A program made the translations under genes and the position numbers. From assembly GCA_049975025.1 (NCBI GenBank), contig JBNGDU010000112.1, positions 9,592 to 42,445 of the forward strand: a DNA stretch of 32,854 bases, in the 5' to 3' direction. The stretch comes from Anaerolineae bacterium. GTDB taxonomy: Bacteria > Chloroflexota > Anaerolineae > B4-G1 > SLSP01. This document shows, in pieces, positions 6,341 through 27,946 of the stretch. The stretch's first letter is position 1. Each line of letters opens with the position of its first letter. The notes beneath the pieces are model-generated. The model did no database searches, was not told the DNA's origin, and saw nothing but the letters and a program-made list of their open reading frames with translations.

Positions 6341-6558
6341 TGGAGCCATGTAGCTGTTCTGCTGCATGAAATGAGAAGAGCAAGCTGGTAGATGGAGCGA
6401 GCTTGCCCGAAATGGATATGTCTGGTTCAGCCACGGTAAGCGTTTCTGTTCGTCGGCATAGATAGTGTGTAGAGTCCGGACAGTTATGCAAGGGCGTCTA
6501 CGAAGACCCAGGTCGAGGTTGACTGGACCGGATGAAAGGATCAAGGCAAAGGTGAATT

Positions 6559-7971: not shown

Positions 7972-8033
7972 TGTGGGTCCGCAAGCTATGCGACCGGCTG
8001 CAGATTAGCAGGATCTAGAGAGGCTGGTTCATC

Positions 8034-8987: not shown

Positions 8988-8999
8988 GGAGGTCACGGC

Positions 9000-9932
9000 A
9001 TGTTACCTGTGCTCATTGTTGCGCTTGTGGCTGTTGCTGCCGTTTTCACCGTTGTAGCTGTAAGGGGACGTGGATCGGCTCAGACCGTGGAGGATCGGCT
9101 CAATGAGTTAGCGGCCTTAGGCCAGTCTGTAACACTTGAGGAACTTGAGCTATCAGAGCCCTTTGCTCAGCGCGTTTTGGTTCCTATGTTCGAGGGATTG
9201 GCACGCACTGCGCAGCGTTTTACCCCGGCGAGTACCATCGAATCAACGCGCCACAAGCTGGAACTTGCGGGCATAGCTCACAAAGTGAAGGCCACACAAT
9301 TTCTGGGCTATCGCGTCGCCGGGGCTCTTGTTCTGGGTGGTATCTCACTTGTCATTGCGGTTGCTGGGGGTAATATCACCTTTGGACGTCGGATTCTTAT
9401 CGTTGTGGTTGCTTTTGTCCTTGGCTACCTGCTTCCCGGTCTCTGGTTGGGTTCCAAGATCAAGAAACGCCAAGATGAAATCACTAAAGCTCTGCCAGAC
9501 GCGTTGGACCTTCTGACGATCTGTGTTGAGGCCGGTCTGGGGTTTGATGCCAGTATGCAGAAGGTCGCTGAAAAGTGGGATAATGAACTCAGCCAAGCCT
9601 TCAGCCGGACGGTGCAGGAAATGCAGCTTGGCAAGCTCCGACGTGAGGCTCTGCGTGATATGGCCGATAGTATCGATGTGCCAGATATGACTACGTTTGC
9701 GGCGGCGATTATCCAGGCGGACCAATTGGGTGTCAGTATGGCCAAGGTGATGCGCATCCAATCTGACACGATGCGACTCAAACGCCGCCAGCGTGCTGAG
9801 GAAAAGGCGCGCCAAGCACCGGTCAAGATGATGTTCCCACTGGTCTTCTTTATCTTTCCCACGATCTTGATCGTGTTGTTAGGCCCGGCCCTTATCACGA
9901 TCAAAGAGGCAGGAGTTTTGGGCGGATTGTAG
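9000..9932 (+). CDS. tadC: Tad pilus inner-membrane platform protein TadC (T2SSF family)
   Basis: LPDALDLLTICVEAGLGFD and RRQRAEEKA..APVKMMFPLVFFIFP motifs. Confidence 0.93.
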   Translation: MLPVLIVALVAVAAVFTVVAVRGRGSAQTVEDRLNELAALGQSVTLEELELSEPFAQRVLVPMFEGLARTAQRFTPASTIESTRHKLELAGIAHKVKATQFLGYRVAGALVLGGISLVIAVAGGNITFGRRILIVVVAFVLGYLLPGLWLGSKIKKRQDEITKALPDALDLLTICVEAGLGFDASMQKVAEKWDNELSQAFSRTVQEMQLGKLRREALRDMADSIDVPDMTTFAAAIIQADQLGVSMAKVMRIQSDTMRLKRRQRAEEKARQAPVKMMFPLVFFIFPTILIVLLGPALITIKEAGVLGGL

Positions 9933-10055: not shown

Positions 10056-10778
10056 GTGAACCCTAAGGTGTGGCGCGGTGTTCACGTGTTTGAGCATCTC
10101 TATGGTGAGTTGCTGAACTTAGTCTTTCCGCCCCGTTGCGTGGTGTGCGGGAAAGTTGAGACCTGGCTTTGTGACTTGTGCGCACGGCAAATCCCGTTGG
10201 TTGATCGTGAAATCTGTCCTCGATGCGGTGATGCTTGGACTGGCCCTGAACTCTGTCCTCGGTGCCGCTCAACTCCCCTGCACGTCGCTCCCGTTCGGTC
10301 GGCTTTCCTTTTCGCTGGGCCTATTCGCAAAGCCATCCATGCGCTCAAATACCGGGGGGCGAGAAGCGTTGTCGCACCCCTGGCTTCGAGAATGGCAGAG
10401 GCCTGGGAGCTTAGCGATATGAGCGGCGCGATCTTGGTGCCGGTTCCACTTCACCCTGAACGAGAAGCGCGTCGAGGTTACAACCAAGCCGGTCTGCTGG
10501 CGAGGGCGCTGTCAGAGCGCATCAGGGTGCCGGCAACGGAGAGCGTGCTTTTCAGGATTCGTCCTACCCTTTCGCAGACTCATCTCGGCCGTGAGGCGCG
10601 ATGGCGGAATGTACAAGATGCCTTTGCGTGCCCAGATGGTTGTGACCTATCCGGCCTTCATGTCACGTTGATCGATGATGTCGCCACGACTGGCGCTACA
10701 CTGAATGCCTGTGCTGTGGCCCTGTTGGCTCAGGGGGCGAGCTCCGTAAGCGCTTTCACTTTAGCACATGCCGTCTAG
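10056..10778 (+). CDS. comF: ComF family protein (double zinc ribbon plus PRTase-like domain)
   Basis: FPPRCVVCG, CDLC, CPRC twice, ALKY, PVPLH..R...RGYNQA, LIDDVATTGATL. Exact start uncertain. Confidence 0.92.
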   Translation: MNPKVWRGVHVFEHLYGELLNLVFPPRCVVCGKVETWLCDLCARQIPLVDREICPRCGDAWTGPELCPRCRSTPLHVAPVRSAFLFAGPIRKAIHALKYRGARSVVAPLASRMAEAWELSDMSGAILVPVPLHPEREARRGYNQAGLLARALSERIRVPATESVLFRIRPTLSQTHLGREARWRNVQDAFACPDGCDLSGLHVTLIDDVATTGATLNACAVALLAQGASSVSAFTLAHAV

Positions 10779-11447: not shown

Positions 11448-13883
11448 TCAAGACCCTACTTGCTCGCCTTTGTCGCCTTGGGCGTTCTCGCTATCTGCTT
11501 CCCTCACGAGCGCCACTTCCAACACCTCGCCCATCGTACCAACTAGGACAAGGTCCAGGCTCTTACGCACCTCTTTGGGGATTTCCTGCAAGTCCTTGCG
11601 GTTCCTCTCGGGTAACAGAACTTGCTTCACGCCGGCACGATGCGCGGCCAATAGCTTCTCTTTCAGCCCACCCACGGGTAACACCCGGCCGCGCAATGTG
11701 ACTTCGCCGGTCATCGCAACATCGCGTCGGATTGGATACCCGGTATAGGCCGAGAAGAGGGCGGTGGCGATGGTGATGCCGGCTGAAGGGCCATCCTTGG
11801 GAATGGCTCCCTCCGGTAGGTGAATATGGATACCTGTTTTGTCAAAGAGATCTGCGTCGACATCCCAGAGCTCGGCTTGAGATCGGAGATGGGTTAGAGC
11901 GGCTTGGGCGGATTCCCGCATAACCGTGCCAAGCTGTCCTGTCAAGGTCAGTTCGCCTTTGCCGGGCATCAGTGCTACTTCGACGGGTAGCAAATCACCC
12001 CCGTTGGCTGTCCAAGCAAGCCCCATCGCTACACCTATGGTATCCTCTTTCTCCAGGTGCTCCTCGGAGAACCTGGGAGGGCCGAGATGGCGCTCAACGG
12101 TCTTGTAAGTGATGGTGCGCATGGGACGTTTCCCGTCGGCCAATCGCCGGGTTGCCTTCCGACAGAGCCCCCCGATCTCGCGCTCCAGGTTGCGGACCCC
12201 GGCCTCGTACGTGTACTGACGGATGAGCTTCTGGAGGGTTGAGGTCGGAAATGCAGGTGGCGCCGACGTGAGACCTGTTTTCTGAATCTGCCGGGGTATG
12301 AGGAAGCGCTTGGCGATTTCGATCTTCTCCAACTCCGTGTATCCAGGAAACTCAATCACTTCCATACGGTCCTCTAGGGCCGCCGGCACCGTGCTCAGGA
12401 TATTTGCGGTTGCGATAAAGAGCACGTCGGATAAATCGTAAGGGATCTCCAGATAGTGATCGGAGAAAGCGTGGTTCTGTTCAGGATCCAGCACCTCTAG
12501 CAGCGCTGAAGAGGGGTCACCGCGGAAGTCCAGGCCGATCTTGTCCACTTCGTCGAGCATGAAGACCGGATTCAACGTACCTGCGCGCCGCATGGTCTGG
12601 AGAATTCGACCCGGAAGCGCCCCAATGTAGGTGCGACGGTGCCCTCTGATCTCGGCTTCGTCACGCACACCCCCCAGTGAGATCCGTGCGAACTCCCGTC
12701 CTAATGCTTCAGCAATGGAACGACCGAGCGACGTTTTTCCGGTGCCGGGCGGGCCTACGAAGCAAAGTATGGTGCTCTGCCGCACCTCCGGTGCCATCTT
12801 CTGCACCGCTATGTACTCCAGAATGCGTTCCTTGGCTTTAGGAAGGCCGTAATGCTGTGATTCCAGCACCTTTTCTGCATGGGCGAGATCCAGGTTATCT
12901 TTCGTCTTCCGGCGCCAAGGTAGGTTGATGAGCCAGTCGAGGTACGTACGAATAATGCCTACCTCTGGCGCCATAGCAGGCATCATGGCCAATCGGTTGA
13001 GCTCCTCATCCGCCCGCTCCCTCACGTAGTCAGGCAGGTCCATCTCGGCTAACTGCTCGCGAATCTTCACCACGTCTCGGGTAAAGGCATCGGTCTCGCC
13101 GAGCTCCTGCTGGATAGCGCGCATTTGCTCGCGGAGGAAGTACTCTCGCTGTGTCCTGTCCACTTCTTCCTGGACCGTGGTATGAATCTGATCCTCTAGC
13201 TCCAGGACGTCTAGCTCACGCGCCAGATGGGCACTTATCCTTTGAAGTCGCTCCGCTACATTCAAAGTCTCCAGCAGCTCCTGGCGCGCTTCGGTGTCCA
13301 GGGAGATAATCTGCGCGATGACGTCGGCCAACTGAGGCGGTGCGTCCACATTCATCGCGTAGACGTAAGCTTCCTCCGGCAGCGTCTGATTGAGCTGGAC
13401 TACCTTCTCAAACATGGTGAGCACAGCGCGGGTGAGGGCTTCCATGAGCGCGTTGTCCTCGATCGGTTCGGGAAGACTTTCCACGGTGGCGATCAGGTAA
13501 GGTCGCTCCTGTACGTATTCCAGCACCCGGACTCGACTGACGCCTTGTGCAATAGCGCTCGTCGTTCCATCGGGTAAACGGATGGAGCGAGCGATCACCA
13601 CCTCAGTTCCCACGTTGTAGAGGTCCTGAGCACTGGGGTAGGTCTCCATGTGATCGTCACGTTGAGCGATGACGACCAGAGGCCAGTCCTCTTGTACGGC
13701 AACCGACAAAGCTTGCAGTGAAGGCTCTCGCCCTACGAAGAGCGGGGTGACCATTTGAGGGTAAACGACGAGCTCCCGCAATGGCAGAATGATAGCCTCG
13801 AACGGTCCGTTGTCCTCCGGAACCGCATCAAATCCCTCTCCAAAGAGATCCTCAGGCGTCAGTGGTAGTTTATCCCAGTCCAT
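11448..13883 (-). CDS. lon: ATP-dependent Lon protease (endopeptidase La)
   Basis: LPLRELVVYP N-domain, GPPGTGKTS, MLDEVDK, PKDGPSAG (Ser) and GGLKEK (Lys). Start placed at ATG 13883 (GAGGA SD); ATG 13913 is an alternative. Confidence 0.96.
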   Translation of the reverse strand: MDWDKLPLTPEDLFGEGFDAVPEDNGPFEAIILPLRELVVYPQMVTPLFVGREPSLQALSVAVQEDWPLVVIAQRDDHMETYPSAQDLYNVGTEVVIARSIRLPDGTTSAIAQGVSRVRVLEYVQERPYLIATVESLPEPIEDNALMEALTRAVLTMFEKVVQLNQTLPEEAYVYAMNVDAPPQLADVIAQIISLDTEARQELLETLNVAERLQRISAHLARELDVLELEDQIHTTVQEEVDRTQREYFLREQMRAIQQELGETDAFTRDVVKIREQLAEMDLPDYVRERADEELNRLAMMPAMAPEVGIIRTYLDWLINLPWRRKTKDNLDLAHAEKVLESQHYGLPKAKERILEYIAVQKMAPEVRQSTILCFVGPPGTGKTSLGRSIAEALGREFARISLGGVRDEAEIRGHRRTYIGALPGRILQTMRRAGTLNPVFMLDEVDKIGLDFRGDPSSALLEVLDPEQNHAFSDHYLEIPYDLSDVLFIATANILSTVPAALEDRMEVIEFPGYTELEKIEIAKRFLIPRQIQKTGLTSAPPAFPTSTLQKLIRQYTYEAGVRNLEREIGGLCRKATRRLADGKRPMRTITYKTVERHLGPPRFSEEHLEKEDTIGVAMGLAWTANGGDLLPVEVALMPGKGELTLTGQLGTVMRESAQAALTHLRSQAELWDVDADLFDKTGIHIHLPEGAIPKDGPSAGITIATALFSAYTGYPIRRDVAMTGEVTLRGRVLPVGGLKEKLLAAHRAGVKQVLLPERNRKDLQEIPKEVRKSLDLVLVGTMGEVLEVALVREADSENAQGDKGEQVGS

Positions 13884-13896
13884 AAATCCTCTGATC

Positions 13897-15261
13897 TCAG
13901 GTCCAAGGCTCATCGACCCAATCTCCCATCGGGAGATCGAGCGCTTCATCCTTTGACCACGCTTCGCGTATATCCGCGGCGAGGAATATCGAACCCGTAG
14001 CAATGATGCCCCAGCCGGGTTGCAGTCTCCGGCAAGCCTGCTCCAACGCTCGTTCGGCGCTGACCGCGATCTCGGCGCCCTTTCCCAAGTCTGCACAGAT
14101 ATCGGCTAAGATGTAAGGAGCTGCAGCGCGTGGATGATAGGACCGCGTCACGATGACGTGTTCAGTATGCGGCAGCAGCGCCTTCAGCATCCCTTTGATG
14201 TCTTTGTCATTTGAGGCCCCGTAGATCAGGAGCCAAGAAGTACCAGGAAACCAGGTTTTGAGCGAATCGATAAGGACTTGAGCCGAATACGGATTGTGCG
14301 CACAGTCGATCAGGAGTGGCGGGTTCGAGCTCAAGACCTCCATACGACCGGGCCACTGTGCTTCGCGCAGGGCGATCCTCGTGGCCTCGGGGCTTGCCCA
14401 CGTATGTCCAGTCTTGCCGAGGACTGCGGCGGCAGCGACCGCAACGGTTGCGTTCTCTTGCTGGAAATCGCCGAGAAGTCTCACCTCATAGGTGCCTTCA
14501 AAGGGGGAGGGACCGTTGCGCTTGCTGACGCGAATGACTTGTCCGTCAAGCGATCTTGATATGGGCTCCCAAGTCCATTCCTCACCGACGATGGTCAGCT
14601 CGGCGTCCCGTTCGTGGGTTACATCCCTCAAAACGTCAAGTGCTTCGACCTTCTGAGGTGCTGTGACGACCGGCACGCCCGGCTTGATAATACCGGCCTT
14701 TTCCCAAGCGATCTCAGCCAACGTGTCGCCGAGCAGATAGGTGTGATCGAGACTGAGCGACGTGATGATACTGATCTCGGGGAGGATGACGTTGGTGGCA
14801 TCGAGGCGTCCTCCAAGTCCTACTTCCATCACCGCCAAATCCACTTCTTTGCGTTGGAAGTAAAGAAAAGCGAGGGCTGTGGTGACCTCGAAGGTGGTTA
14901 GCCCTGGGACTGTCTCGACGATGGGCTGTATCTCTTCGACGAGGTTCGCCATCGCGGATCGGCTGATCAACTCCCGGTTGATCTGTATGCGTTCACGGTA
15001 GGTATGCAGATGCGGAGAAACGTAGAGTCCCGTGCGCAGCCCCCCGGCCTTAGCGATCTCCGCCATCATAGTCGAGACGGATCCCTTGCCCTTGGTGCCG
15101 GCAACATGGATCGTTGGGTAGGATGAATGTGGGTTGTCCAGCTTCTCCAGGAAGTCAACCATGCGCTCGAGTTTGAACTCGCGGGGAGAGTATCGCTCGA
15201 TTCGGCGCTTCTCGTAATCGACCAGACCATAGAGGTAACGCAAAACATCATGATATTTCAT
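13897..15261 (-). CDS. folC: Bifunctional folylpolyglutamate synthase/dihydrofolate synthase
   Basis: IHVAGTKGKGS, SPHL....ERI, EVGLGGRLDATNV, EKAGIIK, WPGRME and DCAHN motifs. Confidence 0.96.
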   Translation of the reverse strand: MKYHDVLRYLYGLVDYEKRRIERYSPREFKLERMVDFLEKLDNPHSSYPTIHVAGTKGKGSVSTMMAEIAKAGGLRTGLYVSPHLHTYRERIQINRELISRSAMANLVEEIQPIVETVPGLTTFEVTTALAFLYFQRKEVDLAVMEVGLGGRLDATNVILPEISIITSLSLDHTYLLGDTLAEIAWEKAGIIKPGVPVVTAPQKVEALDVLRDVTHERDAELTIVGEEWTWEPISRSLDGQVIRVSKRNGPSPFEGTYEVRLLGDFQQENATVAVAAAAVLGKTGHTWASPEATRIALREAQWPGRMEVLSSNPPLLIDCAHNPYSAQVLIDSLKTWFPGTSWLLIYGASNDKDIKGMLKALLPHTEHVIVTRSYHPRAAAPYILADICADLGKGAEIAVSAERALEQACRRLQPGWGIIATGSIFLAADIREAWSKDEALDLPMGDWVDEPWT

Positions 15262-15301
15262 GGGCAAAGATCCAAATACTTGTTATCCGTAGGTAAGGGG
15301 C

Positions 15302-15329
15302 ATTCTACCCGGTTTCGATGCGTTGACAA
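15302..15329 (-). promoter_or_regulatory. Putative promoter for folC-lon
   Basis: Minus strand TTGTCA, 16-nt spacer, TAGAAT. Confidence 0.45.
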
Positions 15330-15395
15330 GAATCAGGGAAGGTATCTGAGCGGCGTAGGACCAACCTGCTCAAGACAAACAGAAAATCACACTGT

Positions 15396-15424
15396 TTCAC
15401 CTTTTCTACATTGTGTGCTAAAGT
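15396..15424 (+). promoter_or_regulatory. Putative extended -10 promoter for the SPFH operon
   Basis: TTCACC, 17-nt spacer, TAAAGT with upstream TG. GAGGAGGA SD before ATG 15456. Confidence 0.45.
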
Positions 15425-15455
15425 GGGCGTCACACCGGTCGTGAGGAGGAGATAG

Positions 15456-17102
15456 ATGACCGTCGTGCGCGTGGGGCTCCTGGTAATCTATGCTGTGAGC
15501 TCTTACGTTCTGAGTCGATACTTAAGGGATCATCTCCCGTCTTCCAGTCACACTTTTGTCCCCGCTTGGATGCGCTCGTGGAGAGCGCTTGTCTGGGTCT
15601 GGGGACCTACACTGTGGTTCTTTCCGGGAATTCTCTGGATCGGGGTCTTAGAGCTTCCGGCTCTGCAGATTCTACTGCTCAGCGTTTGCCTGCCTTTGAC
15701 CTGTTACGTCGTCTTTATGCTTGCCGGCGGATTGTTCCCGCTCTCTTCCTCTGCCTCCGCTTCGGATAAACAGACCTCGATCGTCACCGTAGTTGTCGTT
15801 GCACTCGTCACCGGATACTCGCTATTGAACGCCCTTTTGACCCCCGAGCTCTCCTTGATAAGATTCGCGGTGTTTGTCGCGACGGTGCTCTCGCCGCCTA
15901 TGCTCTCAATTGCCTCGCTCTTACAGTGGATTTCGGAGGTCGTGCCGGTTGGGCGCCACCAAGAGAGGCCGGTACGTCGGGCCCTTATGATGCTTTTTGG
16001 CTTCTTCTCGACTTTCCCTAAGACGACGTGGGTGGTAGAGGATGGCACCGTGCACACTCGGGTCGAGGGAAATCAGTTCGCTGGCGCAGGACCGGGATGG
16101 TTGATGACGGAACCTGAGAATACAGTTATTCTCAAGGCCGGACCGAAGGTGACGCGGGTTGCCGGGCCCGGCGTTGCTTTGACAAAGCGTGCGGAGTCGC
16201 CCTTCAAGATCATAGATCTCAGGAATCAGATGCGCACCACTCAGATCAACGCGATCACCCGGGACGGGATTGAGGTTAGCGTATCTGTCTCCTCCCTATT
16301 CCGGGTCAATCGAGGCTATGGGGAGATCATCCTGGACGAGTCATGGCCTTACAGGCATCAGCGTGACATCTTCGGCGTGGCGTTCTCGGAGGAAGTGGAC
16401 CCTACCGGCAAGAGTCCGTTGGAAGCCAATACGGCGTATCCGTGGGGGGATTTGCCGCTACAGATCGCGGCGCACAGGATGGAACAGGCTATCTCTTTCT
16501 ACAGCCTCGATCAGCTGTACAGTGGCATTACGGATCCTATTGGCGCACTCGACGAGGGCGATCCTCAGTTCCAATTGCTGAAGATCCACCGCCAGGTGGA
16601 GAAAGCACTTGGCTTGCCCAGGGCCGAGGGACTTGGCGACCCCCTCACCCGAACAACCATTGGTAAACTGGTCGAACGGGCTGTACGTCAAGCGCTGGAG
16701 CCGCGGGGATTTGAGATTCTCAGCGGCGGCATTGGTGATAAGATCACGCCGCTCAATCAGGACGTGACAGCCAAGCGAGTTGAGGCCTGGAAGTCTCGCT
16801 TTATCCTCAAGGTGATGGACTGGCAAGCCAAGATGCAACGGAGACGCTTTGCCAAGCTGGAGGACCTACGCCAGAGCGCAAGAGATACGATGCTGGATTC
16901 GATGATCAAGGAGATCCAGAAGTACGTCGGAGCCGCTGACGAAGGAGCCTGGCGGGACTATGTGGCTTATCATCTCCTTGATGATTTGATTCGTATGGCG
17001 CGGAATCCGGATGTTCAGGAGATGTTGCCTGAATCGGCTTTGCCGACGCTGGAAGGTATCTATGCACAGGTGCGCGGCGAAGAGGAGTTTCAAGATCGAT
17101 GA
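15456..17102 (+). CDS. Multi-TM membrane protein with SPFH/Band-7-like domain and C-terminal helical region
   Basis: About 5 hydrophobic segments, then RVAGPG...KIIDLRNQ...AITRDGIEVSV..LFRV (SPFH-type pattern). Confidence 0.75.
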   Translation: MTVVRVGLLVIYAVSSYVLSRYLRDHLPSSSHTFVPAWMRSWRALVWVWGPTLWFFPGILWIGVLELPALQILLLSVCLPLTCYVVFMLAGGLFPLSSSASASDKQTSIVTVVVVALVTGYSLLNALLTPELSLIRFAVFVATVLSPPMLSIASLLQWISEVVPVGRHQERPVRRALMMLFGFFSTFPKTTWVVEDGTVHTRVEGNQFAGAGPGWLMTEPENTVILKAGPKVTRVAGPGVALTKRAESPFKIIDLRNQMRTTQINAITRDGIEVSVSVSSLFRVNRGYGEIILDESWPYRHQRDIFGVAFSEEVDPTGKSPLEANTAYPWGDLPLQIAAHRMEQAISFYSLDQLYSGITDPIGALDEGDPQFQLLKIHRQVEKALGLPRAEGLGDPLTRTTIGKLVERAVRQALEPRGFEILSGGIGDKITPLNQDVTAKRVEAWKSRFILKVMDWQAKMQRRRFAKLEDLRQSARDTMLDSMIKEIQKYVGAADEGAWRDYVAYHLLDDLIRMARNPDVQEMLPESALPTLEGIYAQVRGEEEFQDR

Positions 17103-18463
17103 GACTGCGCGGTCTGTTAATGGCACTAACCGTCGTGGTCATATTAGTAGCGTTTGCCGGTTTTGTGCTTTTGGCGCTTTGGGAACAGCCTGGGCAACTG
17201 CCATCGGTTTCAGAGCTGGTGACATATTTCGTTCTGGTTATCGGCCTCGCCGTCGCACTCTATCTCGGATTTCAGAGGGTTGTCCGGGTCTTCGTTCAGT
17301 ATGTTCAGGCCTTTCACGACCTTTCGCTGGATGAGGCTGAGGGTCTCGTGAACCGGTTGCTTTACAGCTCTCGTCATCCTGGCTCGATGGGGGTTTTGCT
17401 CCGGGTCCAAGCCGGACAGGTGGATCTGGACGGTCCTGCTGTCGTCCACAAGGTTGGGGGACCGGCGTTTCTCAACGTGGATCACGATAGCGTTGTGGTG
17501 ACGAGCCGGCTTGGCTATCTACATCGCGTACTTGGCCCGGGTGGTCATCCCCTAGAGCCCTTCGAGCGGGTTTGGGATGTCGTGGACCTACGTCCTCAAC
17601 GTAGAACGGTCGTGGTGGATTTCATGACGCGGGATGGCATTCCCGCATCCTGCCAGGCGACGATTGTCTGCAGCATCGCTGGTCCGGAGTCCGTGACCGT
17701 GGGGCTCGAGCATAAGACCCACAACGCTGCTTATCTCGACTATGCTGACGATGCGATCCTCCAAGTCTCAACGTCTAAGTTCGTGAAGCGCGTGGATAGC
17801 GGCTATCGTGTCAACGATTGGGTTGTGGGTATGAGTGGTGCTTTGGAGAGTGTCATCCGGGACACACTTGAGCAATACACACTTGATGAATTCCTTAACC
17901 CGCAGTACTGGCTAGAGGAGGATGAAGGTCGACCCCGCAGTGCCGCCGCACCGAAGCTTGTTTCTGAACTCGAGGAAGCGATTGAGCGTGACATAAAAGC
18001 CGTGGGCCGTGAGCGGGGGGTGAGTGTGATACGCGTGGAAATGGGCACGGTACGTCCCGCCGAGGAAGCCATATCCCGGCAGTGGTTGGAGTTCTGGCAG
18101 GCTAAGTTGCAGAAACGCGTGGATCGCTACGCGATGCAAGCGGAAGTGACGCGTGCCGAGCTTGCGGTATTCGCTCGGGTGGAGGTCCGCGTTGATTTCC
18201 TCAACCGGGTGCTGGAGCGTCTGCAGAGTCTTCACGGTCAGGGCATCGATATTCCCGGTGAGCTTGTGGTTTCGACCATCACGGAGGTTCTCCAAACAAT
18301 GCATAGGCGTGGTTCTGAAACGGAACGTGCGCTCTATCCGTCGATGGAGAAAGTTGAGAGCCTGGCGCGGGCCGTCAAGATCATCCAGGCTGATGAGGAC
18401 GTCGACGCTCTAGATGACGTCGGGTCCGAGCAGGCCCCCTCTTTGACGGTCGACGAAGATTGA
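17099..18463 (+). CDS. Two-TM membrane protein with SPFH/Band-7-like domain, paralogue of the upstream gene
   Basis: RVLGPGGHPLEPFERVWDVVDLRPQRR....FMTRDGIPA; GVSVIRVEMG; ATGA overlap with the upstream stop. Confidence 0.8.
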   Translation: MRLRGLLMALTVVVILVAFAGFVLLALWEQPGQLPSVSELVTYFVLVIGLAVALYLGFQRVVRVFVQYVQAFHDLSLDEAEGLVNRLLYSSRHPGSMGVLLRVQAGQVDLDGPAVVHKVGGPAFLNVDHDSVVVTSRLGYLHRVLGPGGHPLEPFERVWDVVDLRPQRRTVVVDFMTRDGIPASCQATIVCSIAGPESVTVGLEHKTHNAAYLDYADDAILQVSTSKFVKRVDSGYRVNDWVVGMSGALESVIRDTLEQYTLDEFLNPQYWLEEDEGRPRSAAAPKLVSELEEAIERDIKAVGRERGVSVIRVEMGTVRPAEEAISRQWLEFWQAKLQKRVDRYAMQAEVTRAELAVFARVEVRVDFLNRVLERLQSLHGQGIDIPGELVVSTITEVLQTMHRRGSETERALYPSMEKVESLARAVKIIQADEDVDALDDVGSEQAPSLTVDED

Positions 18464-18476
18464 GTCCACACTGTAG

Positions 18477-19442
18477 ATGCGCTGGATCTCTTTGCCCGAG
18501 GAGCTGGCCCTGCCACATTTGCTGGAACTGCAGGACACACAGCTATATCTTCGAGACGCGTTCTCCCAGATATTGACGTTGCTTCGGACCGCACATTTTG
18601 AGTCAGCGCTCAGGTTAAGCGAGCGGGCCTATACCTTAGCTTATCGCAAGCGGGATCGAGCTGCGCAGCCACTTGCCCTCTTGCTCCGAGCCGGCGTTTG
18701 TTGGCGTTTGGGGCGTTGGGAGGATGCCCTGGATGCGATACGTCACGCCCTAGGCTATCTTGAGCTTCAAGTCTCGCCCACTGCCCACTATAACGAGGCC
18801 CTAGCCGTTTACGCAGAAGGCTTGCTGCATTGGGTGCTGCGAGCCGACGAGAAAGTCGTCGAGACCTTCGCTTATGCCCATCAGGGACTGGTGGAGAGCG
18901 AACGTTACTGGGGATTTGAGCAAAACGCTGGGCGTGTCGCGGCATGCCGGGATGTCATTCGGTGGATGTCAAGTCTACTAGATGCCCTGGACCCCCTGGA
19001 TTCCAGTGAGGTGACAGTGATTCTCCCGGTCTACGAGTTCGTGAACGGTAGATGGATCCGGACTGACATCAAGAGGGTGGGCCCGTATCAAGTCGCCATT
19101 CCGGCGGAGGTGGTGGCGCGCTATTTGCCTTCGACCTACGTACCGATTCAGCTGGATACCCTGCTCTTCTTTCCGCTGAATCCCAGCTCGATCTACATCG
19201 CTGTTCGGATACCTGCTGACTCGCAGATGTTGAGTCAGGGACGGCGAGGAGATCTTCTGGTTGTAGAGACGGTCGTACCGAGATCACTGAATGAGGAGTT
19301 GGTCTTGACGTCTGAGAAGCCATTTGTGCGTCGCAGCGACGGTCGGGTCGAGTTCAGACCTGCGTTCCGGGATGGGGCCGAGCCTGCGGAACGCTTGGTC
19401 GGTATACCTCGAGTTCTTATCAGGGAAGGGGATGAGCCATGA
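18477..19442 (+). CDS. Hypothetical protein: TPR-like helical N-terminus plus putative degenerate LexA/S24 peptidase-like C-terminal domain
   Basis: TPR-like pattern ALLLRAGVCWRLGRWEDALDAIRHALG. C-terminal AVRIPADS...GDLLVV...RVEFRP...LVGIPRVLIREGD resembles the LexA CTD by eye. Confidence 0.6.
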   Translation: MRWISLPEELALPHLLELQDTQLYLRDAFSQILTLLRTAHFESALRLSERAYTLAYRKRDRAAQPLALLLRAGVCWRLGRWEDALDAIRHALGYLELQVSPTAHYNEALAVYAEGLLHWVLRADEKVVETFAYAHQGLVESERYWGFEQNAGRVAACRDVIRWMSSLLDALDPLDSSEVTVILPVYEFVNGRWIRTDIKRVGPYQVAIPAEVVARYLPSTYVPIQLDTLLFFPLNPSSIYIAVRIPADSQMLSQGRRGDLLVVETVVPRSLNEELVLTSEKPFVRRSDGRVEFRPAFRDGAEPAERLVGIPRVLIREGDEP

Positions 19443-20374
19443 ATTACGGAGAGCATCGCGTTCTGGTTATCGGAGCTGCAGGGCTTGACCTCAAGGTGCA
19501 GCCGAGAACAGCGGTCGTGGAGTTGGCGCGCTCCAATCCGGGCGTCATCCGCTGGGGTTGGGGAGGGGTGGCCCGCAATATCGCTGAGAACATGGCGTTG
19601 TTAGACACCGAAGTGCATCTTATCACAGCGGTGGGAGATGACTGGTGGGGTCGTACGCTGCTCAATCAGCTCAAGGATCTCGGCATCAACACGGAGGCCT
19701 GTGTGGTCACTGCCGAACATCCAACTGCCTCGTATGTCGCTCTCTACCACATGGACAAGCAGCTATGGGTTGCTTTCGATGATATGATGGCTATTCAGGA
19801 GATCACGGCCGGTCACATCCATCGATTCCGGCGGTTGATCAGAGATGCGGACATGGTGTGCATCGACGCGAACTTGTCCGACCGGGCCCTTGACACCCTT
19901 TTCCGCTTGACGGATCAGTATGATGTACCGGTGTGTGCGGATCCCACCACTGCCCTGTTGGCACACCGTTTGAAGCCGCATTTGCCGCAGTTGATGGCTA
20001 TCACGCCCGATCGTGATGAGGCTGAGGCGCTCCTCGAGGACGCACTGGATAGCGAGGAGAAGATCAGCGTGGGGGCGCGCAGGCTCGTTCAGGCCGGCGT
20101 AGAGCTCGCTGTGATTACCTTGGGCGCGGAAGGCCTCTACTATGCTACCTCTGAGGAGAGTGGACGGCTGCCGGCTTTCCCCGTCGATGTCGTGGACCCA
20201 ACCGGTGCCGGTGATGCCCTGACCGCGGCCGTGGCGTATGGATTATTGGAGGGCGTGAATCCCGAGGAAGCCGTGCGACTGGGCATGGCTGCTGCTGCAC
20301 AGACGATAAGCTGTCGAGACACGGTCTGCCCGGACATCAGTCCCGAGTCGCTCTACGAGCGCTTGGTGCTTTGA
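19439..20374 (+). CDS. PfkB/ribokinase family kinase, pseudouridine-kinase (PsuK/YeiI)-like
   Basis: SNPG.I..GWGGVARNIAEN, AVGDD..G, IDANL, ITLGAEG, VVDPTGAGDA; ATGA overlap with the upstream gene. Confidence 0.88.
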   Translation: MNYGEHRVLVIGAAGLDLKVQPRTAVVELARSNPGVIRWGWGGVARNIAENMALLDTEVHLITAVGDDWWGRTLLNQLKDLGINTEACVVTAEHPTASYVALYHMDKQLWVAFDDMMAIQEITAGHIHRFRRLIRDADMVCIDANLSDRALDTLFRLTDQYDVPVCADPTTALLAHRLKPHLPQLMAITPDRDEAEALLEDALDSEEKISVGARRLVQAGVELAVITLGAEGLYYATSEESGRLPAFPVDVVDPTGAGDALTAAVAYGLLEGVNPEEAVRLGMAAAAQTISCRDTVCPDISPESLYERLVL

Positions 20375-20466
20375 TCGGTTTTCTAGATACATTGTAAAGA
20401 TGGAAAATGGACTCGCAGTCACGAAGAGCATCATCTGTCGATCATCATGTAGAGATAGGAGATACT

Positions 20467-22998
20467 ATGAATAAAGTTTCTAGACCCTCTGAAGCGCTAT
20501 TTCGTGAAGCAGGTACGGGGGATGCGTGGGCCCCCGCTCGGTTACCAGGCTCCGTTCATACTGATCTTATGGCGCTCGGTCGGATCCCCGACCCCTTTGT
20601 CGCCGACAACGAGCTAGAGGTGCAGTGGGTGGCCGAGAGGGACTGGGAGTATCGGGTGCATTTCCGCCCGGACGAGGGGCTCTTGGCGGAAGAGAGAATC
20701 TTTCTGGTTTGTGACGGTCTGGACACTTTGTCAGACGTGAGATTCAACGATCAGTTCCTAGGTCATACGGAGAACATGTTCCGCCAGTACCGTTGGAACG
20801 TCACGGATCTAATAACCAAGGGACAGAACGAGGTCCACCTTCTCTTCTCCTCAACGGTCAACTATATGCTTGATAAGCAGGAAGAAGAGCCCCTCATCGG
20901 TCCCTCGCAATCCATTCCGGGTGGGGCGCACGTTCGCAAGGCCCCCAGTCAATTTGGCTGGGATTGGGGACCGCAATTGCCTCCCATGGGCATCTGGCGG
21001 GAGATACGCTTGGAGGGCTATACTACGGCGCGTTTGAACGATGTGCACCTTCGACAGATTCACCGTCTTGAGGGCGTGACGTTGAGGGTGGGCGTCGCCG
21101 TGGAGCGATGGCGAAGCGCTGATCTTGAGGCCCGAGTCCAGGTGACAGCGCCCACCGGTGAGGTCCAGGCGTGCCGGATATCTCTAGATGGCGTGGACAC
21201 CGAGGGGCGGGAGGAGATTGACATCAAGGATCCTCAACTCTGGTGGCCTAACGGTTATGGGCCTCAACCGCTCTACCAGGTCCACGTGTCCCTCTACGAG
21301 GGCGAAATCCTTCGTGACGAACGGGATCTTCAGATCGGCCTTCGCAAGCTTGAGTTGCTTCAGGAGCAGGATGACTTTGGGACCTCTTTCACATTTGTCG
21401 TCAACGATGTGCCCATCTTTGCCAAGGGCGCGAATTGGATTCCCGCGGACTCCTTTCCGACACGCCTGACAGCGGCCCGCCTTGAGCACCTGATCCGCAG
21501 CGCGGCGGAGGCCAACATGAATATGCTGCGCGTTTGGGGCGGCGGGTTGTACGAGGACGACCTGTTCTACGATCTCTGTGATCAATATGGCCTCCTGATC
21601 TGGCAGGACTTCATCTTCTCGTGCAGCGTCTATCCGGCAGATGAGGCGTTCTTGGACGATGTTCGCGACGAGATCATTTACAATATCCGCCGGTTGCGGC
21701 ACCATCCGAGTATGGCGCTGTGGTGTGGCAACAACGAGATGGAGTGGGGATGGGTCGGCTGGGGATGGGCCGAGCGGACGGGGCCCGAGTACAAGACCTA
21801 TTACGACCAGATGTTCCACCACATGTTGCCCGAGCTTTGTGAAACCTACGATCCAGACACTCCCTACTGGCCGAGCTCCCCGTCATCGGGTATTCCCTTC
21901 GAGGATCCCGGTGGGGTGCGCGCTGGGGATACGCATAACTGGGAGGTCTGGCACGGTGGCGCGCCCTTTGAGCAGTATCGAGATCATCCGTCGCGCTTTG
22001 TGAGCGAGTTTGGGTTCCAGTCCTTGCCGCCTTTGGACACAGTACGCACGTATGCGGCAGAGGCGGACTGGAATATGACCTCCTACATTATGGAGCATCA
22101 TCAGCGCAACGCGTCCGGTAACGGCAAGATCATCACCTATATGACCGCACACTTCCGCATGCCCAAGGACTTCCCGTCGCTCATCTACCTATCGCAATTG
22201 CTGCAAGCGGAGGCCGTCCGTACGGGTGTCGAGTTCTGGCGTCGCAATCCATCCACCAGCGGCGCTCTTTACTGGCAGCTGAACGATTGCTGGCCCGTGG
22301 CGTCCTGGGCAAGCCTGGACTACTATGGCCGATGGAAGGCGCTACACTACGCCGCACGCCGTTTCTTCGCGCCCTTGCTGCTCTCGGCCGAGAAGCGGAA
22401 CTACCGGGAGGGCAGCGCTACGACGACCCATGCCACAGGCTACCTTTTCCAACCGGAGCCTGGGCCCTTCGTCGACCTCTTCTTGACCAGTGATCTGTTG
22501 GAGCCCTGGGAGGGCACAGTGCTATGGTCGCTTGAGACGCTGGATGGCGATGTGCTGCAGGCCGGGCGCCAGCAGGTAGCGCCGGGTGCGCTGAGCGCGG
22601 ACAAGATCATCTCCCTGGACTTCGAGGATAGGGTTGACCCCACAAACGAGCGCTCTGTCGTCCTGGTCTATGAGCTCACGGGAGATGACGAGCGGCAGAG
22701 CCTAGGTGTGCTGCCCTTCGTTCCGTCGAAGCATCTCGAGCTATCTGATCCCGAGCTTTCTGCGACGGTCCGGGAGACGGCGTGGGGCTTTGAGATCGAG
22801 ATCACGGCGCAGAAGCTGGCGCGTTTCGTGTGGCTGACGGTTGAGCAAGCCGATGAGAGCTTCGGGGCATTTAGCGACAACTTCTTTGATCTACCGGCCG
22901 GCCGCTCGACGACGGTGACGTTGCCGACTCTCGATGGCTGGGATGTCGAGCGCCTGGAAGCCGCGCTACGGATCCGCAGCCTTGTGGACAGTTACTGA
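20467..22998 (+). CDS. Beta-mannosidase, glycoside hydrolase family 2 (no signal peptide seen)
   Basis: GLDT, RKAPSQFGWDWGP, KGANWIP, NMNMLRVWGGG, WCGNNE (acid/base), SEFG (nucleophile), YWQLNDCWP. Start at ATG 20467 after AGGAG. Confidence 0.93.
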   Translation: MNKVSRPSEALFREAGTGDAWAPARLPGSVHTDLMALGRIPDPFVADNELEVQWVAERDWEYRVHFRPDEGLLAEERIFLVCDGLDTLSDVRFNDQFLGHTENMFRQYRWNVTDLITKGQNEVHLLFSSTVNYMLDKQEEEPLIGPSQSIPGGAHVRKAPSQFGWDWGPQLPPMGIWREIRLEGYTTARLNDVHLRQIHRLEGVTLRVGVAVERWRSADLEARVQVTAPTGEVQACRISLDGVDTEGREEIDIKDPQLWWPNGYGPQPLYQVHVSLYEGEILRDERDLQIGLRKLELLQEQDDFGTSFTFVVNDVPIFAKGANWIPADSFPTRLTAARLEHLIRSAAEANMNMLRVWGGGLYEDDLFYDLCDQYGLLIWQDFIFSCSVYPADEAFLDDVRDEIIYNIRRLRHHPSMALWCGNNEMEWGWVGWGWAERTGPEYKTYYDQMFHHMLPELCETYDPDTPYWPSSPSSGIPFEDPGGVRAGDTHNWEVWHGGAPFEQYRDHPSRFVSEFGFQSLPPLDTVRTYAAEADWNMTSYIMEHHQRNASGNGKIITYMTAHFRMPKDFPSLIYLSQLLQAEAVRTGVEFWRRNPSTSGALYWQLNDCWPVASWASLDYYGRWKALHYAARRFFAPLLLSAEKRNYREGSATTTHATGYLFQPEPGPFVDLFLTSDLLEPWEGTVLWSLETLDGDVLQAGRQQVAPGALSADKIISLDFEDRVDPTNERSVVLVYELTGDDERQSLGVLPFVPSKHLELSDPELSATVRETAWGFEIEITAQKLARFVWLTVEQADESFGAFSDNFFDLPAGRSTTVTLPTLDGWDVERLEAALRIRSLVDSY

Positions 22999-23006
22999 GG
23001 GAATGT

Positions 23007-24002
23007 ATGAAAGCTCTGGTAGTGACCCAGCCAAACGAGGCTGAAGTTCAGGACAGATCGTTACCCCAGCCAGGGCCTGGTGAAGCTCTGGTCAAGGTCG
23101 CGGTCTGTGGTATCTGCGGCACCGACGTCCACATCTTCCGAGGGGAGTACATGGGCGACTATCCGGTGGTGCCCGGCCATGAGTTCGCGGGGGAGGTCGT
23201 GGCGGTGGGAGAGAACGTCACCCGGGTCGAATCGGGTGACCGGGTCGCCGTCGAGCCCAACATCGCCTGCGGCAGGTGCTACAATTGTCTTCACAACCGG
23301 CAGAATTTCTGCCTGAACTGGCAGGCCATCGGGGTGACGCGACCGGGTGCTATGGCCGAGTACGTCGTGGCTCCCGAAGAGAACGTCTTCAAGATCGGTG
23401 ACCTCGCCTTCGAGCAAGGGGCCTTCGTGGAACCGCTATCCTGCGTGATCCACGGCATTGAGCGAGCTGAGATTCGTATGGCGGATCGGCTGGCGATACT
23501 GGGCGCCGGGCCGATCGGCATCCTGCACGTGCAGTTGGCGCTGAGTCGTGGCGCTACCGACGTCACGGTGCTGGAGCGTCAGGCCGCCCGGGCGCAGCTT
23601 GCCGAGGACTACGGGGCCCATCACATCGTGCGGGAGCTCCATGAATTGCCGGAGGACGCCTATGACGTGGTGATCGACGCCACGGGCGCCCTACCGGTGA
23701 TGTCTCGAACGATCGCCTTGGCGCGCAAGGGGGGCACCGTGCTTCTCTTCGGTGTGCCGCCCCGGGGCGCTGAGCTGGAGCTCGACGCCTTTGCGATCTT
23801 CGAGAAGGGTTTGACCCTTCGCTCGTCCTACACGTCCTTGCGCAACTCCTACCAGGCGGTGGACCTGCTTCAGTCCGGGGTGGTGGACGTCTACGATCTG
23901 ATCTCACACCGTCTGCCCTTGCCCCAATTTGAGGAGGGCGTGAAGCTGATCGAAGAGGGGCTGGAGGACGTTAAGAAGGTCCTGATGGTCCCAGCTGCCT
24001 AG
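23007..24002 (+). CDS. Zinc-dependent medium-chain alcohol/polyol dehydrogenase
   Basis: CGTD, GHEFAGEV, C..C..C.......C structural Zn site, EPLSC, GAGPIG. Substrate not determinable. Confidence 0.92.
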   Translation: MKALVVTQPNEAEVQDRSLPQPGPGEALVKVAVCGICGTDVHIFRGEYMGDYPVVPGHEFAGEVVAVGENVTRVESGDRVAVEPNIACGRCYNCLHNRQNFCLNWQAIGVTRPGAMAEYVVAPEENVFKIGDLAFEQGAFVEPLSCVIHGIERAEIRMADRLAILGAGPIGILHVQLALSRGATDVTVLERQAARAQLAEDYGAHHIVRELHELPEDAYDVVIDATGALPVMSRTIALARKGGTVLLFGVPPRGAELELDAFAIFEKGLTLRSSYTSLRNSYQAVDLLQSGVVDVYDLISHRLPLPQFEEGVKLIEEGLEDVKKVLMVPAA

Positions 24003-24347: not shown

Positions 24348-24366
24348 ATGATAGGAGGTGGATGTG

Positions 24367-25377
24367 ATGACCATCGAACGAGAGGATATCCGCTTATCTC
24401 TTCCCAGTAAGGGGCGGTTGGCGGATGACACGGTGGATTTCCTAGCCGCCTGCGGCTTGAGGATCTACAAACCCAACCCCAGGCAGTACGCAGCATCTAT
24501 CCCGGCCTTGCCTAACGTCACAGTGATCTTCCAGCGCCCCACCGACATCGTCGTGGGCGTGCGGGACGGAAGCGTGGACCTCGGCATCACCGGTCTGGAC
24601 GTGACCCTGGAGTACGGAGGGGATCGCGACGCGATCCTGGTGCTCCATGACGCTCTGGGCTTTGGCGAGTGCCGCCTGGCGATCGCAGTGCCGGAGGCCT
24701 GGGACACGGTCTTCACGCTCTCTGATCTGGCTGACTATATCCCGGCGCTGGGTCACCCGCTGCGGGTCGCGACCAAGTTCAGCAATCTTGCAGGGGCTTT
24801 CCTGACCCAACACGGCATCGAGCCCTACCAGCTGGTCCACGCCGAGGGCACGCTGGAGGTCGCCCCTGCCATTGGCTACGCGGACTGCATTGTGGATCTC
24901 GTCTCCTCGGGGCAGACGTTGCGCGACAACCGGCTGCGACCTTTGGAGGACGGTGTGATCGTGCGATCCCAAGCGGCTTTAGTCGCCAACCGGGCTGCAC
25001 TGCGCGCGAGGCCCGAGGTTCTGTCCGTGGCGCGAACGCTGCTGGAGTTCACCGAGGCCCATTTGCGCGCTCAGGACCATATTATGATTGTCGCGAACAT
25101 GCGTGGGGAGTCTCCCGAAGCCATCACTGAGCGGATGTTCGCTCAGGATGTGCTGGGGGGGCTGCAGGGACCGACCGTGGCTCCCGTGGTCGTGCGGGAT
25201 GGCAATCAGCATTGGTATGCCGTTCAGATCGTCGTGCGGCGCGACGCGCTGATTCAGGCGATCGCCGAGCTGCGCGCCATCGGCGGGAGCGGCGTTGTGG
25301 TCACCCCGGTGACGTATATCTTTGAGGAAGAACCGGCCCGGTATCTTGCGATGATGGAGGCCGTCAAGGCACCCTAG
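24367..25377 (+). CDS. hisG: ATP phosphoribosyltransferase, long form
   Basis: LPSKGRL, RPTDI...V.DG..DLGITGLD, RVATKF, GTLEVAPAIGYAD.IVDLVSSGQTLRDNRL, plus C-terminal regulatory domain (GPTVAP). AGGAGG SD. Confidence 0.96.
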   Translation: MTIEREDIRLSLPSKGRLADDTVDFLAACGLRIYKPNPRQYAASIPALPNVTVIFQRPTDIVVGVRDGSVDLGITGLDVTLEYGGDRDAILVLHDALGFGECRLAIAVPEAWDTVFTLSDLADYIPALGHPLRVATKFSNLAGAFLTQHGIEPYQLVHAEGTLEVAPAIGYADCIVDLVSSGQTLRDNRLRPLEDGVIVRSQAALVANRAALRARPEVLSVARTLLEFTEAHLRAQDHIMIVANMRGESPEAITERMFAQDVLGGLQGPTVAPVVVRDGNQHWYAVQIVVRRDALIQAIAELRAIGGSGVVVTPVTYIFEEEPARYLAMMEAVKAP

Positions 25378-25413
25378 AGGTATCTTGACGATTTGGGAAC
25401 AGAGGAGAAGGTG

Positions 25414-26754
25414 ATGATCAAGATCTATGAGACGTTGGAGGCGGCTGAGTACATCTTGACGCGCCGGACGATGCAGACGGTTGATGAGGTGCCCGAGGTG
25501 GTGCTCGCGTCCATCGAGCGCGTCTTCGGAGAGCCGCTCACGCCTGAAGAGGCCGTGCGACGTCTGCTCGCCGACGTGCGTGTTGGAGGCGATGCCGCGC
25601 TGCGGACGTGGACTGAGAAGATCGATGGTGTTGAGCTCGAGGCTTTTGAGGTGCCCAAATCGGAGTGCGAGGCCGCCTTTGAGGCGCTTTCGCCCGAACT
25701 GCGCGCATCCCTGAATCTGGCCGCTGATCGGATTCGAGATTTCCACGCGCGGCAGCCGATCCCGGATTGGACCACGGAAGAGATGGGGGGCACCCTCGGG
25801 CAGCGACTGGTACCCCTGGAGCGCGTAGGTGTCTATGTGCCGGGGGGGACAGCTCCGCTTCCTTCCTCGCTGCTGATGGCGGTGATCCCGGCTCGCGTCG
25901 CGGGCGTGGACGAGATCTATGTCTGCACGCCGGCAGGGCGTGAGACGGGTGTGGTGTCTCCCTTGATCCTGGCAGCGGCTTGGGTGGCCGACGCCGATCG
26001 TGTCTTCCAATTGGGGGGCGCGCTCGCCGTAGGCGCCATGGCCTTCGGCACGGAGAGCGTACCCCGGGTCGATAAGGTCGTCGGTGCGGGCGGTATCTTC
26101 ACCACGATCGCAAAGCGGCAGGTCTTCGGCATTGTGGGCCTTGACGGGCTCTACGGTCCCACTGAGACGGTGGTGGTGGCGGATGACTCCGCAACCCCTG
26201 AATGGGTGGCTGCCGATCTATTAGCCCAGGCCGAGCACGACGTCCTGGCGACGGCGATTCTGCTGACGCCATCCCGAACGCTGGCCGAAGCCGTGCGGCA
26301 GGAAGTGACGCGCCAGATGGCTTCCCTCGAACGCTCAGAGATCATCGAGACCTCTCTGGCCGGGCAGGGCGGGATCGTACTGACCCCCGATCTTGCTTCG
26401 GCGGTGCAGGCCGCTGATGCCTTCGCTCCCGAGCACCTCTGTCTGTCGGTGGCGAACGCCGAGGCGTGGGCTGAGCGGATCCGCAACGCCGGCGGGGTCT
26501 TCATCGGCGAGCACTCCTTTGAGGTGCTGGGCGACTACGTCGCCGGTCCCAGCCATATTATGCCTACGGGGGGGACCGCGCGGTTCAAGGGTCCCGTCAA
26601 CGTGCTCGATTTCGTCAAGGTCCTCAATATCATCGGTGTGGATGAGACAACCGCTGCTGAGCTGGCCGCGGACGCCGACCGCCTCGCTCGGGCGGAGTCC
26701 CTGACCGCTCACGCGGCGGCTGCGCGCTATCGCGCTGTCACAACAACCGAGTGA
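25414..26754 (+). CDS. hisD: Histidinol dehydrogenase
   Basis: RVGVYVPGG, DLLAQAEHD, APEHL, LGDYVAGPSHIMPTGGTARF. Start set at the ATG after GAGGAG. Confidence 0.97.
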   Translation: MIKIYETLEAAEYILTRRTMQTVDEVPEVVLASIERVFGEPLTPEEAVRRLLADVRVGGDAALRTWTEKIDGVELEAFEVPKSECEAAFEALSPELRASLNLAADRIRDFHARQPIPDWTTEEMGGTLGQRLVPLERVGVYVPGGTAPLPSSLLMAVIPARVAGVDEIYVCTPAGRETGVVSPLILAAAWVADADRVFQLGGALAVGAMAFGTESVPRVDKVVGAGGIFTTIAKRQVFGIVGLDGLYGPTETVVVADDSATPEWVAADLLAQAEHDVLATAILLTPSRTLAEAVRQEVTRQMASLERSEIIETSLAGQGGIVLTPDLASAVQAADAFAPEHLCLSVANAEAWAERIRNAGGVFIGEHSFEVLGDYVAGPSHIMPTGGTARFKGPVNVLDFVKVLNIIGVDETTAAELAADADRLARAESLTAHAAAARYRAVTTTE

Positions 26755-26774
26755 GTCTCGCGTTCTGGAGAGAT

Positions 26775-27881: not shown

Positions 27882-27946
27882 CGAGTGCGTGTGATGTCGC
27901 CGAACGAGGCGTCAAACGCGCTGTTTTAGAAGGAGGTAGACGGGGG

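Follow-up and report, generated by a model that had tools for sequence, protein, structure and literature searches.

A gene cassette in which two SPFH membrane proteins are followed by a soluble protein with tetratricopeptide repeats (TPR) and a LexA-like beta domain can be recognized in a 32,854-nucleotide (nt) stretch of DNA from an Anaerolineae bacterium (Chloroflexota; B4-G1; SLSP01; assembly GCA_049975025.1, contig JBNGDU010000112.1, positions 9,592-42,445 of the forward strand). This whole stretch is called the window below, and positions are counted from its first letter. The genes concerned, all on the + strand, are A (15456-17102; 548 amino acids, aa; SPFH paralogue), B (17099-18463; 454 aa; SPFH protein), C (18477-19442; 321 aa; TPR and S24-like beta domain), and the PfkB-family kinase gene K (19439-20374; 311 aa; Pfam PfkB 168.8 bits). 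In the reading favored here, which we hold with moderate confidence, A-B-C is a lineage-specific, vertically inherited cassette of the Anaerolineae that combines an SPFH scaffold with a dedicated partner, C, non-catalytic in the order to which the window belongs. The adjacency of the three genes in this order is kept across the class, and, as far as alignments can tell, the catalytic residues of C have been lost in the window's order.

By profile comparison, the products of A and B are paralogous, membrane-anchored SPFH proteins, in agreement with a first-pass annotation of this DNA made from the letters alone. B scores 53.7 bits against Pfam Band_7 (PF01145), above the 23.6-bit cut-off, and A scores 14.3 bits, below it. 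A is assigned to the family because its profile aligns to that of B (hhalign probability 100, E 3e-50, 359 columns), and the two proteins also match each other by BLASTP (E 2e-8 over 293 residues). The family alignment extends through the long helical C-terminal part of both. Among solved structures, the archaeal stomatin PH1511 is the best match of both family profiles (1.6e-6 for B, 2.9e-5 for A), and the B profile also matches QmcA at 2.5e-3; 26 of 30 Atlas feature matches of A fall within the Band_7-carrying cluster set, commonest in Chloroflexota. No NCBIfam HflK or HflC model matches A or B at E up to 0.1, and no Pfam family for an NfeD OB domain or a ClpP-like protease domain is present in A, B, C, or K.

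Hydropathy profiles place two N-terminal transmembrane helices before the SPFH region of B, and a larger N-terminal block with several hydrophobic helices (approximately residues 1-160) before the SPFH and helical regions of A. By the positive-inside rule, B is predicted to be N-in, so that its SPFH domain would be cytoplasmic. A LLPE..LP.L..L motif is conserved near the C-terminus of A, with a similar motif in some B proteins; speculatively, the motif of A could be what the TPR domain binds.

C is a soluble protein, with no hydrophobic segment by hydropathy, built from a TPR domain (residues 1-175; 18477-19001, +) and a diverged LexA-type domain (residues 176-321; 19002-19442, +; a degenerate Peptidase_S24). 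Its Pfam TPR matches all lie under the cut-offs, and it has no sequence match among PDB sequences. An AlphaFold2 model made with 18 orthologues has a pLDDT of 80.2 and a pTM of 0.79, with pLDDT mostly 86-97 across the first 170 residues. The best structural match of residues 1-175 found with VIA-align is the Pins/LGN TPR (Z 14.4, root-mean-square deviation 2.8, 141 residues), followed by Rap proteins (Z 12.7-13.0).

The beta domain, folded alone with 57 orthologues (AlphaFold2 pLDDT 79.6), finds LexA-type C-domains at the top of 48,161 chains: Thermotoga maritima LexA (Z 6.4), a lambda-186 hybrid repressor (6.3), the 186 repressor C-domain (6.2), and Escherichia coli LexA (5.7), all below the level that the tool regards as safe. 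The Foldseek search that the first-pass annotation had called for likewise returned LexA first, at an E of 0.08; an independent model of C in the Atlas aligns to S24 clusters below that tool's bar. Taken alone, such matches of a predicted fold would be leads and not proof. The LexA-type fold is right as a matter of homology, because C of the order aligns to relatives that bear a recognizable S24 domain (hhalign probability 97.4, E 1.3e-11, 237 columns running from the TPR part into the S24 domain). The early proposal of a TPR protein with a LexA/S24 fold thus holds through the Pfam S24 domains of these relatives, while the evidence from the fold of C itself is weak. An NfeD-like OB fold was considered for the beta domain and rejected; no OB or NfeD chain comes near the top of the structural matches, and the relatives carry Pfam S24.

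These relatives were reached through the SPFH genes. A profile of C from the window's order finds nothing full-length elsewhere in the phylum, and a search with a B profile turns up A/B tandems both in further families of the class and in a single genome assigned to a different class. Of the 12 loci of this kind in the phylum sample, 11 have a third gene behind B in the same orientation, and six of the 11 third genes exceed the 23.3-bit Peptidase_S24 cut-off (loci L168, 58.1 bits; L179, 56.2; L178, 48.4; L174, 41.9; L176, 41.1; L177, 39.4); two more fall just under it (L172, 23.0; L171, 22.2), and several of the third genes also have TPR matches. The class sample of 40 loci adds further TPR plus S24 genes in the same position (eight proteins in seven loci, 28.7-77.0 bits). 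Restriction of the triad to one order was accordingly rejected, the order's C profile being too diverged to detect the S24-type relatives. An exhaustive search with an S24-type C profile gave 343 cluster representatives at E<=1e-30; among the 150 TPR-S24 representatives listed, most are full-length single-stretch matches of 320-450 aa.

The two groups of C proteins differ at the positions that would carry catalysis. S24-type relatives possess the G-x-S-M serine, the GD-x-V-L-V strand, and the K-[RK]-[FY] lysine as in true LexA (the comparison being the gene at L065:1920-2660), and the Ser, Met, Asp, and Lys are invariant among eight aligned sequences; five of these eight rows (alignment A6) also have Ala-Gly at the LexA-like position just after the TPR domain. 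Among C-like proteins outside the order, hmmalign finds both Ser and Lys of the dyad in 15 of 29 (8/11 in the phylum sample, 7/18 in the class sample); the remaining 14 do not have both, and most of these are unaligned in the dyad region. Within the window's order, the same method finds the dyad in none of 61 proteins. Only three of 57 orthologues have Ser at the Ser column, no beta-domain column reaches 40% Ser or Lys, and Ala-Gly is absent from the order's rows of alignment A6, including that of the window. Since neither dyad nor Ala-Gly is conserved there, C of the window is probably a pseudo-protease adaptor.

Conservation of the cassette was assessed in several overlapping samples. In 145 genomes of the order, searched with the C profile at E<=1e-8, C is found in 112, including 49 of 59 high-quality genomes and, by family, 62/70, 26/48, and 23/26. 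The first-pass annotation had proposed a check of gene neighborhoods for the SPFH-SPFH-TPR/S24 triad, and the triad does recur: A-B-C is contiguous in 57 of the 60 order loci fetched around C, and of the three exceptions two are cut by contig ends and the third has no B match in a B-sized gap. A B-specific peptide pattern run over 185,579 species genomes located 80 loci, a set that overlaps the 60 and is not independent of it; C follows B in 73 of them. All but one (79/80) are labelled as metagenome-assembled genomes of Chloroflexota lineage, the other as "uncultured bacterium." A broader B profile (E<=1e-25) detects the A/B family in 111 of the 301 class genomes sampled (81/216 high-quality; 69/176 genera) and in 23 of 401 phylum-wide genomes, only one of which is labelled as outside the class.

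Gene arrangement within the cassette is tight. As originally described, the four genes are co-oriented, with ATGA stop/start overlaps at A/B (17099-17102) and C/K (19439-19442), and with the TGA of B (18461-18463) separated by 13 nt from the ATG of C (18477); both the open reading frames (ORFs) and the sequence itself agree on this. Orthologous loci keep the coupling, with an A/B overlap and a short B-C gap, and many have the 4-nt C/K overlap. These overlaps and short gaps persist where the proteins are only 20-30% identical. The flanking genes change between genera and families while A-B-C stays contiguous; across lineages they include folC, GT2 and GT4 glycosyltransferases, DUF11 proteins, cyclic nucleotide (cNMP)-binding proteins, M50, PALP, and VanZ.

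One parallel among known systems is the p-stomatin/NfeD (STOPP) arrangement. PH1510-N (Ser97/Lys138) is described as cleaving the C-terminal region of the stomatin PH1511 in Pyrococcus horikoshii (PMC4208085). There, as here, an SPFH gene lies beside a dedicated partner of a Ser-Lys dyad protease type, and it is the PH1511 stomatin that best matches the A and B profiles among solved structures. The STOPP partner is a ClpP-like S49 protease with membrane spans and an OB domain, whereas C is soluble, with TPR and an S24 (LexA) fold; two SPFH paralogues are present in place of one, no NfeD domain was found, and the dyad is not conserved in C of this window.

A second parallel is offered by HflK/HflC (SPFH3a/3b), likewise two adjacent paralogous SPFH genes and a presumed hetero-oligomer tied to proteolysis. 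In the account of Hinderhofer et al. 2009 (PMC2636767), prokaryotic SPFH proteins form 12 subfamilies, some with NfeD or FtsH links, and HflK/C is a duplicated pair that interacts with FtsH; the term "TPR" is absent from that text. A differs from these proteins in its several transmembrane helices, neither A nor B matches the HflK/HflC models, and the SPFH domain of B is predicted to be cytoplasmic where those of HflK/HflC are periplasmic. Nor is there an FtsH in the window: the statement of the first-pass annotation that neither FtsH nor NfeD is encoded there stands, with no such domain among the 27 ORFs scanned, and FtsH need not adjoin.

A third comparison is with LexA, lambda CI, and UmuD. 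C relatives outside the order share with them an effector domain, an Ala-Gly linker, and an S24 Ser-Lys domain, and the C-domains of LexA and phage repressors are the top structural matches of the modeled beta domain of the window. C differs in having TPR at its N-terminus and not a DNA-binding helix-turn-helix, in being tied to SPFH genes and not to the SOS response, and, in the window's lineage, in being without dyad and cleavage site. No description of the SPFH-TPR/S24 triad was found in a literature search that covered mainly titles and abstracts, which agrees with the early proposal that no described system matches. A-B-C is real and conserved, and it appears to be a so far undescribed version of the pairing of an SPFH scaffold with a dedicated Ser-Lys protease. 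What sets it apart are the probable pseudo-enzyme C of the window's lineage and an unexplained tie to pseudouridine salvage.

A mechanism can be envisioned from these parallels. The most likely arrangement is that A and B together build a hetero-oligomeric ring or cage at the cytoplasmic membrane face, as HflK/HflC and other SPFH proteins do, and C would be their dedicated cytoplasmic partner. In its ancestral form, C may have been a LexA-like self-cleaving switch that freed the TPR domain; alternatively, it may have been an SPFH-directed Ser-Lys protease that cut the SPFH C-terminal region, by analogy with PH1510 acting on PH1511. In the window's order, C would serve as a non-catalytic adaptor, its TPR binding peptide and its S24-like domain dimerizing or docking. 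K belongs to a second gene set (PsuK, PsuG, and a membrane protein, D) that is recurrently found beside the SPFH pair.

Several points weigh against this account of the cassette. Ring formation is inferred only because the SPFH family is known to form rings, and a physical interaction among A, B, and C is proposed by analogy. The fold matches of the beta domain are weak, as described above, and C of the window has no PF00717 (Peptidase_S24) match at E up to 10. No C match was obtained in 33 of the 145 order genomes, many of them incomplete. Arrangements of A-B-K without C exist (L135, L144, L182, L186, L195, L196, and L202), so C is not obligatory for the SPFH pair. A, B, and C also diverge much faster than their neighbors: identity to the proteins of the window is 33-54% within the genus, against 64-80% for the products of lon, folC, K, the GH2 gene, and the alcohol dehydrogenase gene. 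Conflict systems show such a pattern as well. Finally, two residues of the window's own C, Ser249 and Lys281, lie under the catalytic columns, a point taken up below.

Two neighboring A/B pairs occur in some Anaerolineae (L135:13-5948 and L144:4149-12017; also L182 and L199). These double-pair loci are arranged as A-B-K-A-B, as convergent A-B / K-B-A, or as two A-B-C sets; no C gene was detected in the first two arrangements. In two class loci, a 399-aa double-zinc-ribbon protein occupies the place of C behind the SPFH gene (L213:2138-3337, -; L219:2134-3333, -). The window also encodes a double-zinc-ribbon protein (10056-10778, +), upstream of HPF. In one genome of family f2, an 878-aa fusion of a KAP-family P-loop NTPase with an FGE-sulfatase-like domain follows C (L046:3255-5891, -). 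A canonical LexA (LexA_DNA_bind plus Peptidase_S24) is encoded at L065:1920-2660 (+), about 500 nt upstream of A-B-C-K; this is a single occurrence in the order and probably due to chance.

The kinase gene deserves separate consideration. Among NCBIfam models, that for pseudouridine kinase fits K best (179.1 bits; equivalog cut-off 540), and K is probably such an enzyme. It lies after C in 36 of 60 order loci; elsewhere in the class it follows B (L182, L186, L195, L196, and L202) or C (L191 and L194), and it is present in 15 of the 40 class loci. Genes for Indigoidine_A/PsuG (385-432 bits) come after the pair, C, or K at nine of these 40 loci and at L174, and stand directly after K in L183 and L195. 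D, a polytopic membrane protein of approximately 220 aa (alignment A5), recurs directly after C, K, or PsuG. The loci taken together give 32 matches to it; 12 of the 40 class loci have it, as do 10 of the 60 order loci, where it stands directly after C (examples of D are L028:5908-6573, -; L051:7001-7666, +; and G000 C410:5659-6351). No Pfam or NCBIfam model and no PDB sequence matches D; its motifs may resemble those of polyprenol/phytol-kinase-type membrane enzymes. Of the 40 class loci, 23 contain one or more of K, PsuG, and D. The suggestion that the kinase may be only a neighbor therefore gives way: K is not a passive neighbor, since the SPFH pair is recurrently co-located with K, PsuG, and D across the class. 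K is also dispensable for the cassette; it was not found at E<=1e-20 in any of five f2 genomes that keep A-B-C, and it lies away from A/B in four of the five other genomes in which the two are not adjacent.

This co-location looks like pseudouridine salvage, with a functional link that is unexplained. One alternative to the adaptor cassette, possible though we think it unlikely, is that the cluster serves pseudouridine uptake and catabolism: the SPFH pair would organize or gate a transporter (D, or the multi-transmembrane domain of A), PsuK and PsuG would process the nucleoside, and C would regulate. That explanation partly overlaps the one preferred here. It draws on the best model of K, on the recurrence of K, PsuG, and D among the class loci and of K after C in the order, and on loci in which K or PsuG directly follows B. 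psuK and psuG form an operon in E. coli, and the pairs in L183 and L195, with PsuG directly after K, resemble it. The window fits the comparison less well: the score of K is well short of the PsuK equivalog cut-off, and in the window genome PsuG and D are encoded on contigs other than that of the cassette. Nor was K found in the f2 genomes. A transporter role for D is a guess, as D has no family match. No SPFH-pseudouridine link was found in the literature, searched mainly by titles and abstracts.

A more ambitious reading, also unlikely in our estimation, joins these strands into an undescribed membrane module. In it, a hetero-oligomeric SPFH cage would serve a TPR protein with LexA-like self-cleavage, either as its co-protease or as its platform. 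The module would be wired to pseudouridine or nucleoside salvage, and several lineages would have turned the protease into a pseudo-enzyme adaptor. The S24 switch of such a module would operate independently of RecA and DNA, and the window's order would be among the converted lineages.

It could also be that adjacency is simply inherited synteny, with C (or K) physically and functionally uncoupled from the SPFH pair. C and K are each dispensable in some lineages, as such an explanation would have it. We nevertheless regard it as rather improbable, because the flanks change fully between genera and families while A-B-C stays contiguous, and because start/stop overlaps and short gaps are maintained at the low protein identities given above.

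That C of the window is still a working LexA-like autoprotease or protease, and the module a proteolytic membrane-stress switch, is very unlikely. Ser249 and Lys281 do stand under the catalytic columns in two alignments (MAFFT and hhalign), and relatives with an intact dyad occupy the same gene position. The serine is, however, shared at this column by very few orthologues, and the closest relatives are without the dyad residues (L011, for example, has Gly at the Ser column). Its context is broken as well: the GxSM motif reads ADSQM, FVNGRW replaces the Ala-Gly, and no Pfam S24 match appears even at the permissive threshold used. We read the placement of Ser249 and Lys281 as coincidence; residual activity in this species is possible. 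The proteolytic function proposed at the outset for the window genome is thus not borne out by an order in which neither dyad nor Ala-Gly is conserved.

The first-pass annotation had also offered an anti-phage role. S24/LexA-like and TPR domains are common in phage-related switches, and a conflict system made of a membrane SPFH sensor and a TPR/S24 effector-regulator would account for repeated loss of catalytic residues, for variable accessory genes, and for the fast evolution of A, B, and C relative to their neighbors; the last is the only feature that leans toward a conflict role. Against this, no family of PADLOC-DB 2.0 matches any of the four proteins (E up to 0.1), and a tblastn search with B finds no match in 72,556 plasmid or 50,697 phage records. 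Genome G000 has a single A/B pair and one weak further match, and no nuclease, NTPase, or toxin-like effector is adjacent in the window. The cassette sits between housekeeping operons with a GC content like that of its flanks and uniform across the region, is present in most genomes of the order, and shows stable synteny at the level of the genus. A mobile defense system is unlikely given this core-chromosome context and the absence of PADLOC, plasmid, or phage matches, and a conflict role is the least probable of the explanations weighed here.

The surroundings of the cassette are those of a core chromosome. Upstream in the window are genes for a release factor, FtsY, SfsA, a Tad pilus cluster, HPF, Lon, and FolC. 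The Tad/Flp-type pilus set (3906-9932, +) comprises a CpaB-like SAF/RcpC protein, a response-regulator/ParA-like ATPase, a CpaF-type T2SSE ATPase, and two T2SSF (TadB/TadC-like) genes. Downstream is a near-complete histidine operon (24358-30743, +; HisG, HisD, an aminotransferase, IGPD, GATase, and two His_biosynth genes), which underlines the core-chromosome context.

The immediate borders of the cassette differ somewhat from their first description. The gene divergent from A is folC (13897-15267, -; TIGR01499, 383.6 bits), and not lon (listed as 11448-14096, -; identified by Pfam), which lies behind it; outside the genus, neither keeps its place beside the triad. A functional partnership with Lon was dismissed because the adjacency does not extend past the genus. 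The listed lon ORF begins at a GTG and overlaps the folC end by 200 nt. Its orthologues align only from approximately residue 34-72 onward, so the true start is probably downstream, near the folC stop.

Between folC and A lies an intergenic region of 188 bp (15268-15455, +) that holds a Shine-Dalgarno-like GAGGAGG just 5' of the ATG of A. A simple scan finds no sigma-70-like match on its + strand. The only such match in the region is on the minus strand (15329-15302) and faces folC. Terminator-like matches are at chance level (6 found versus 6.2 expected). The single promoter originally envisaged for the four genes, and the limits of the operon, are therefore putative. The four genes are coupled as proposed, but by their ORF coordinates they do not end the co-directional string: a GH2 glycosidase gene with beta-mannosidase-type domains (20407-22998, +; Pfam) begins 32 nt after K, and a Zn-dependent alcohol dehydrogenase gene (23007-24002, +; Pfam) follows 8 nt later. 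Synteny of these two with the cassette is confined to the genus, and they are therefore placed outside the module.

SPFH proteins occur across cellular life and, to our knowledge, have known partners for only a few families. Those partners are FtsH for HflK/C and prohibitins, and NfeD/STOPP for stomatins and flotillins. Thermoflexus hugenholtzii is given as the only cultured member of Thermoflexales (PMC8129789), and with few cultured members in the clade the function of A-B-C will probably need heterologous testing. The repeated association with pseudouridine salvage is an unexpected linkage that is itself testable. If the reading of A-B-C as an SPFH scaffold with a dedicated S24-derived partner is true, a second, structurally unrelated type of Ser-Lys protease would be found with an SPFH pair, and the arrangement of "scaffold plus dedicated protease" would have arisen more than once. 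The active and inactivated partners would form a natural series with which to probe the purpose of the protease, and LexA-type autoproteolytic switches would extend past DNA-binding repressors to a membrane setting.

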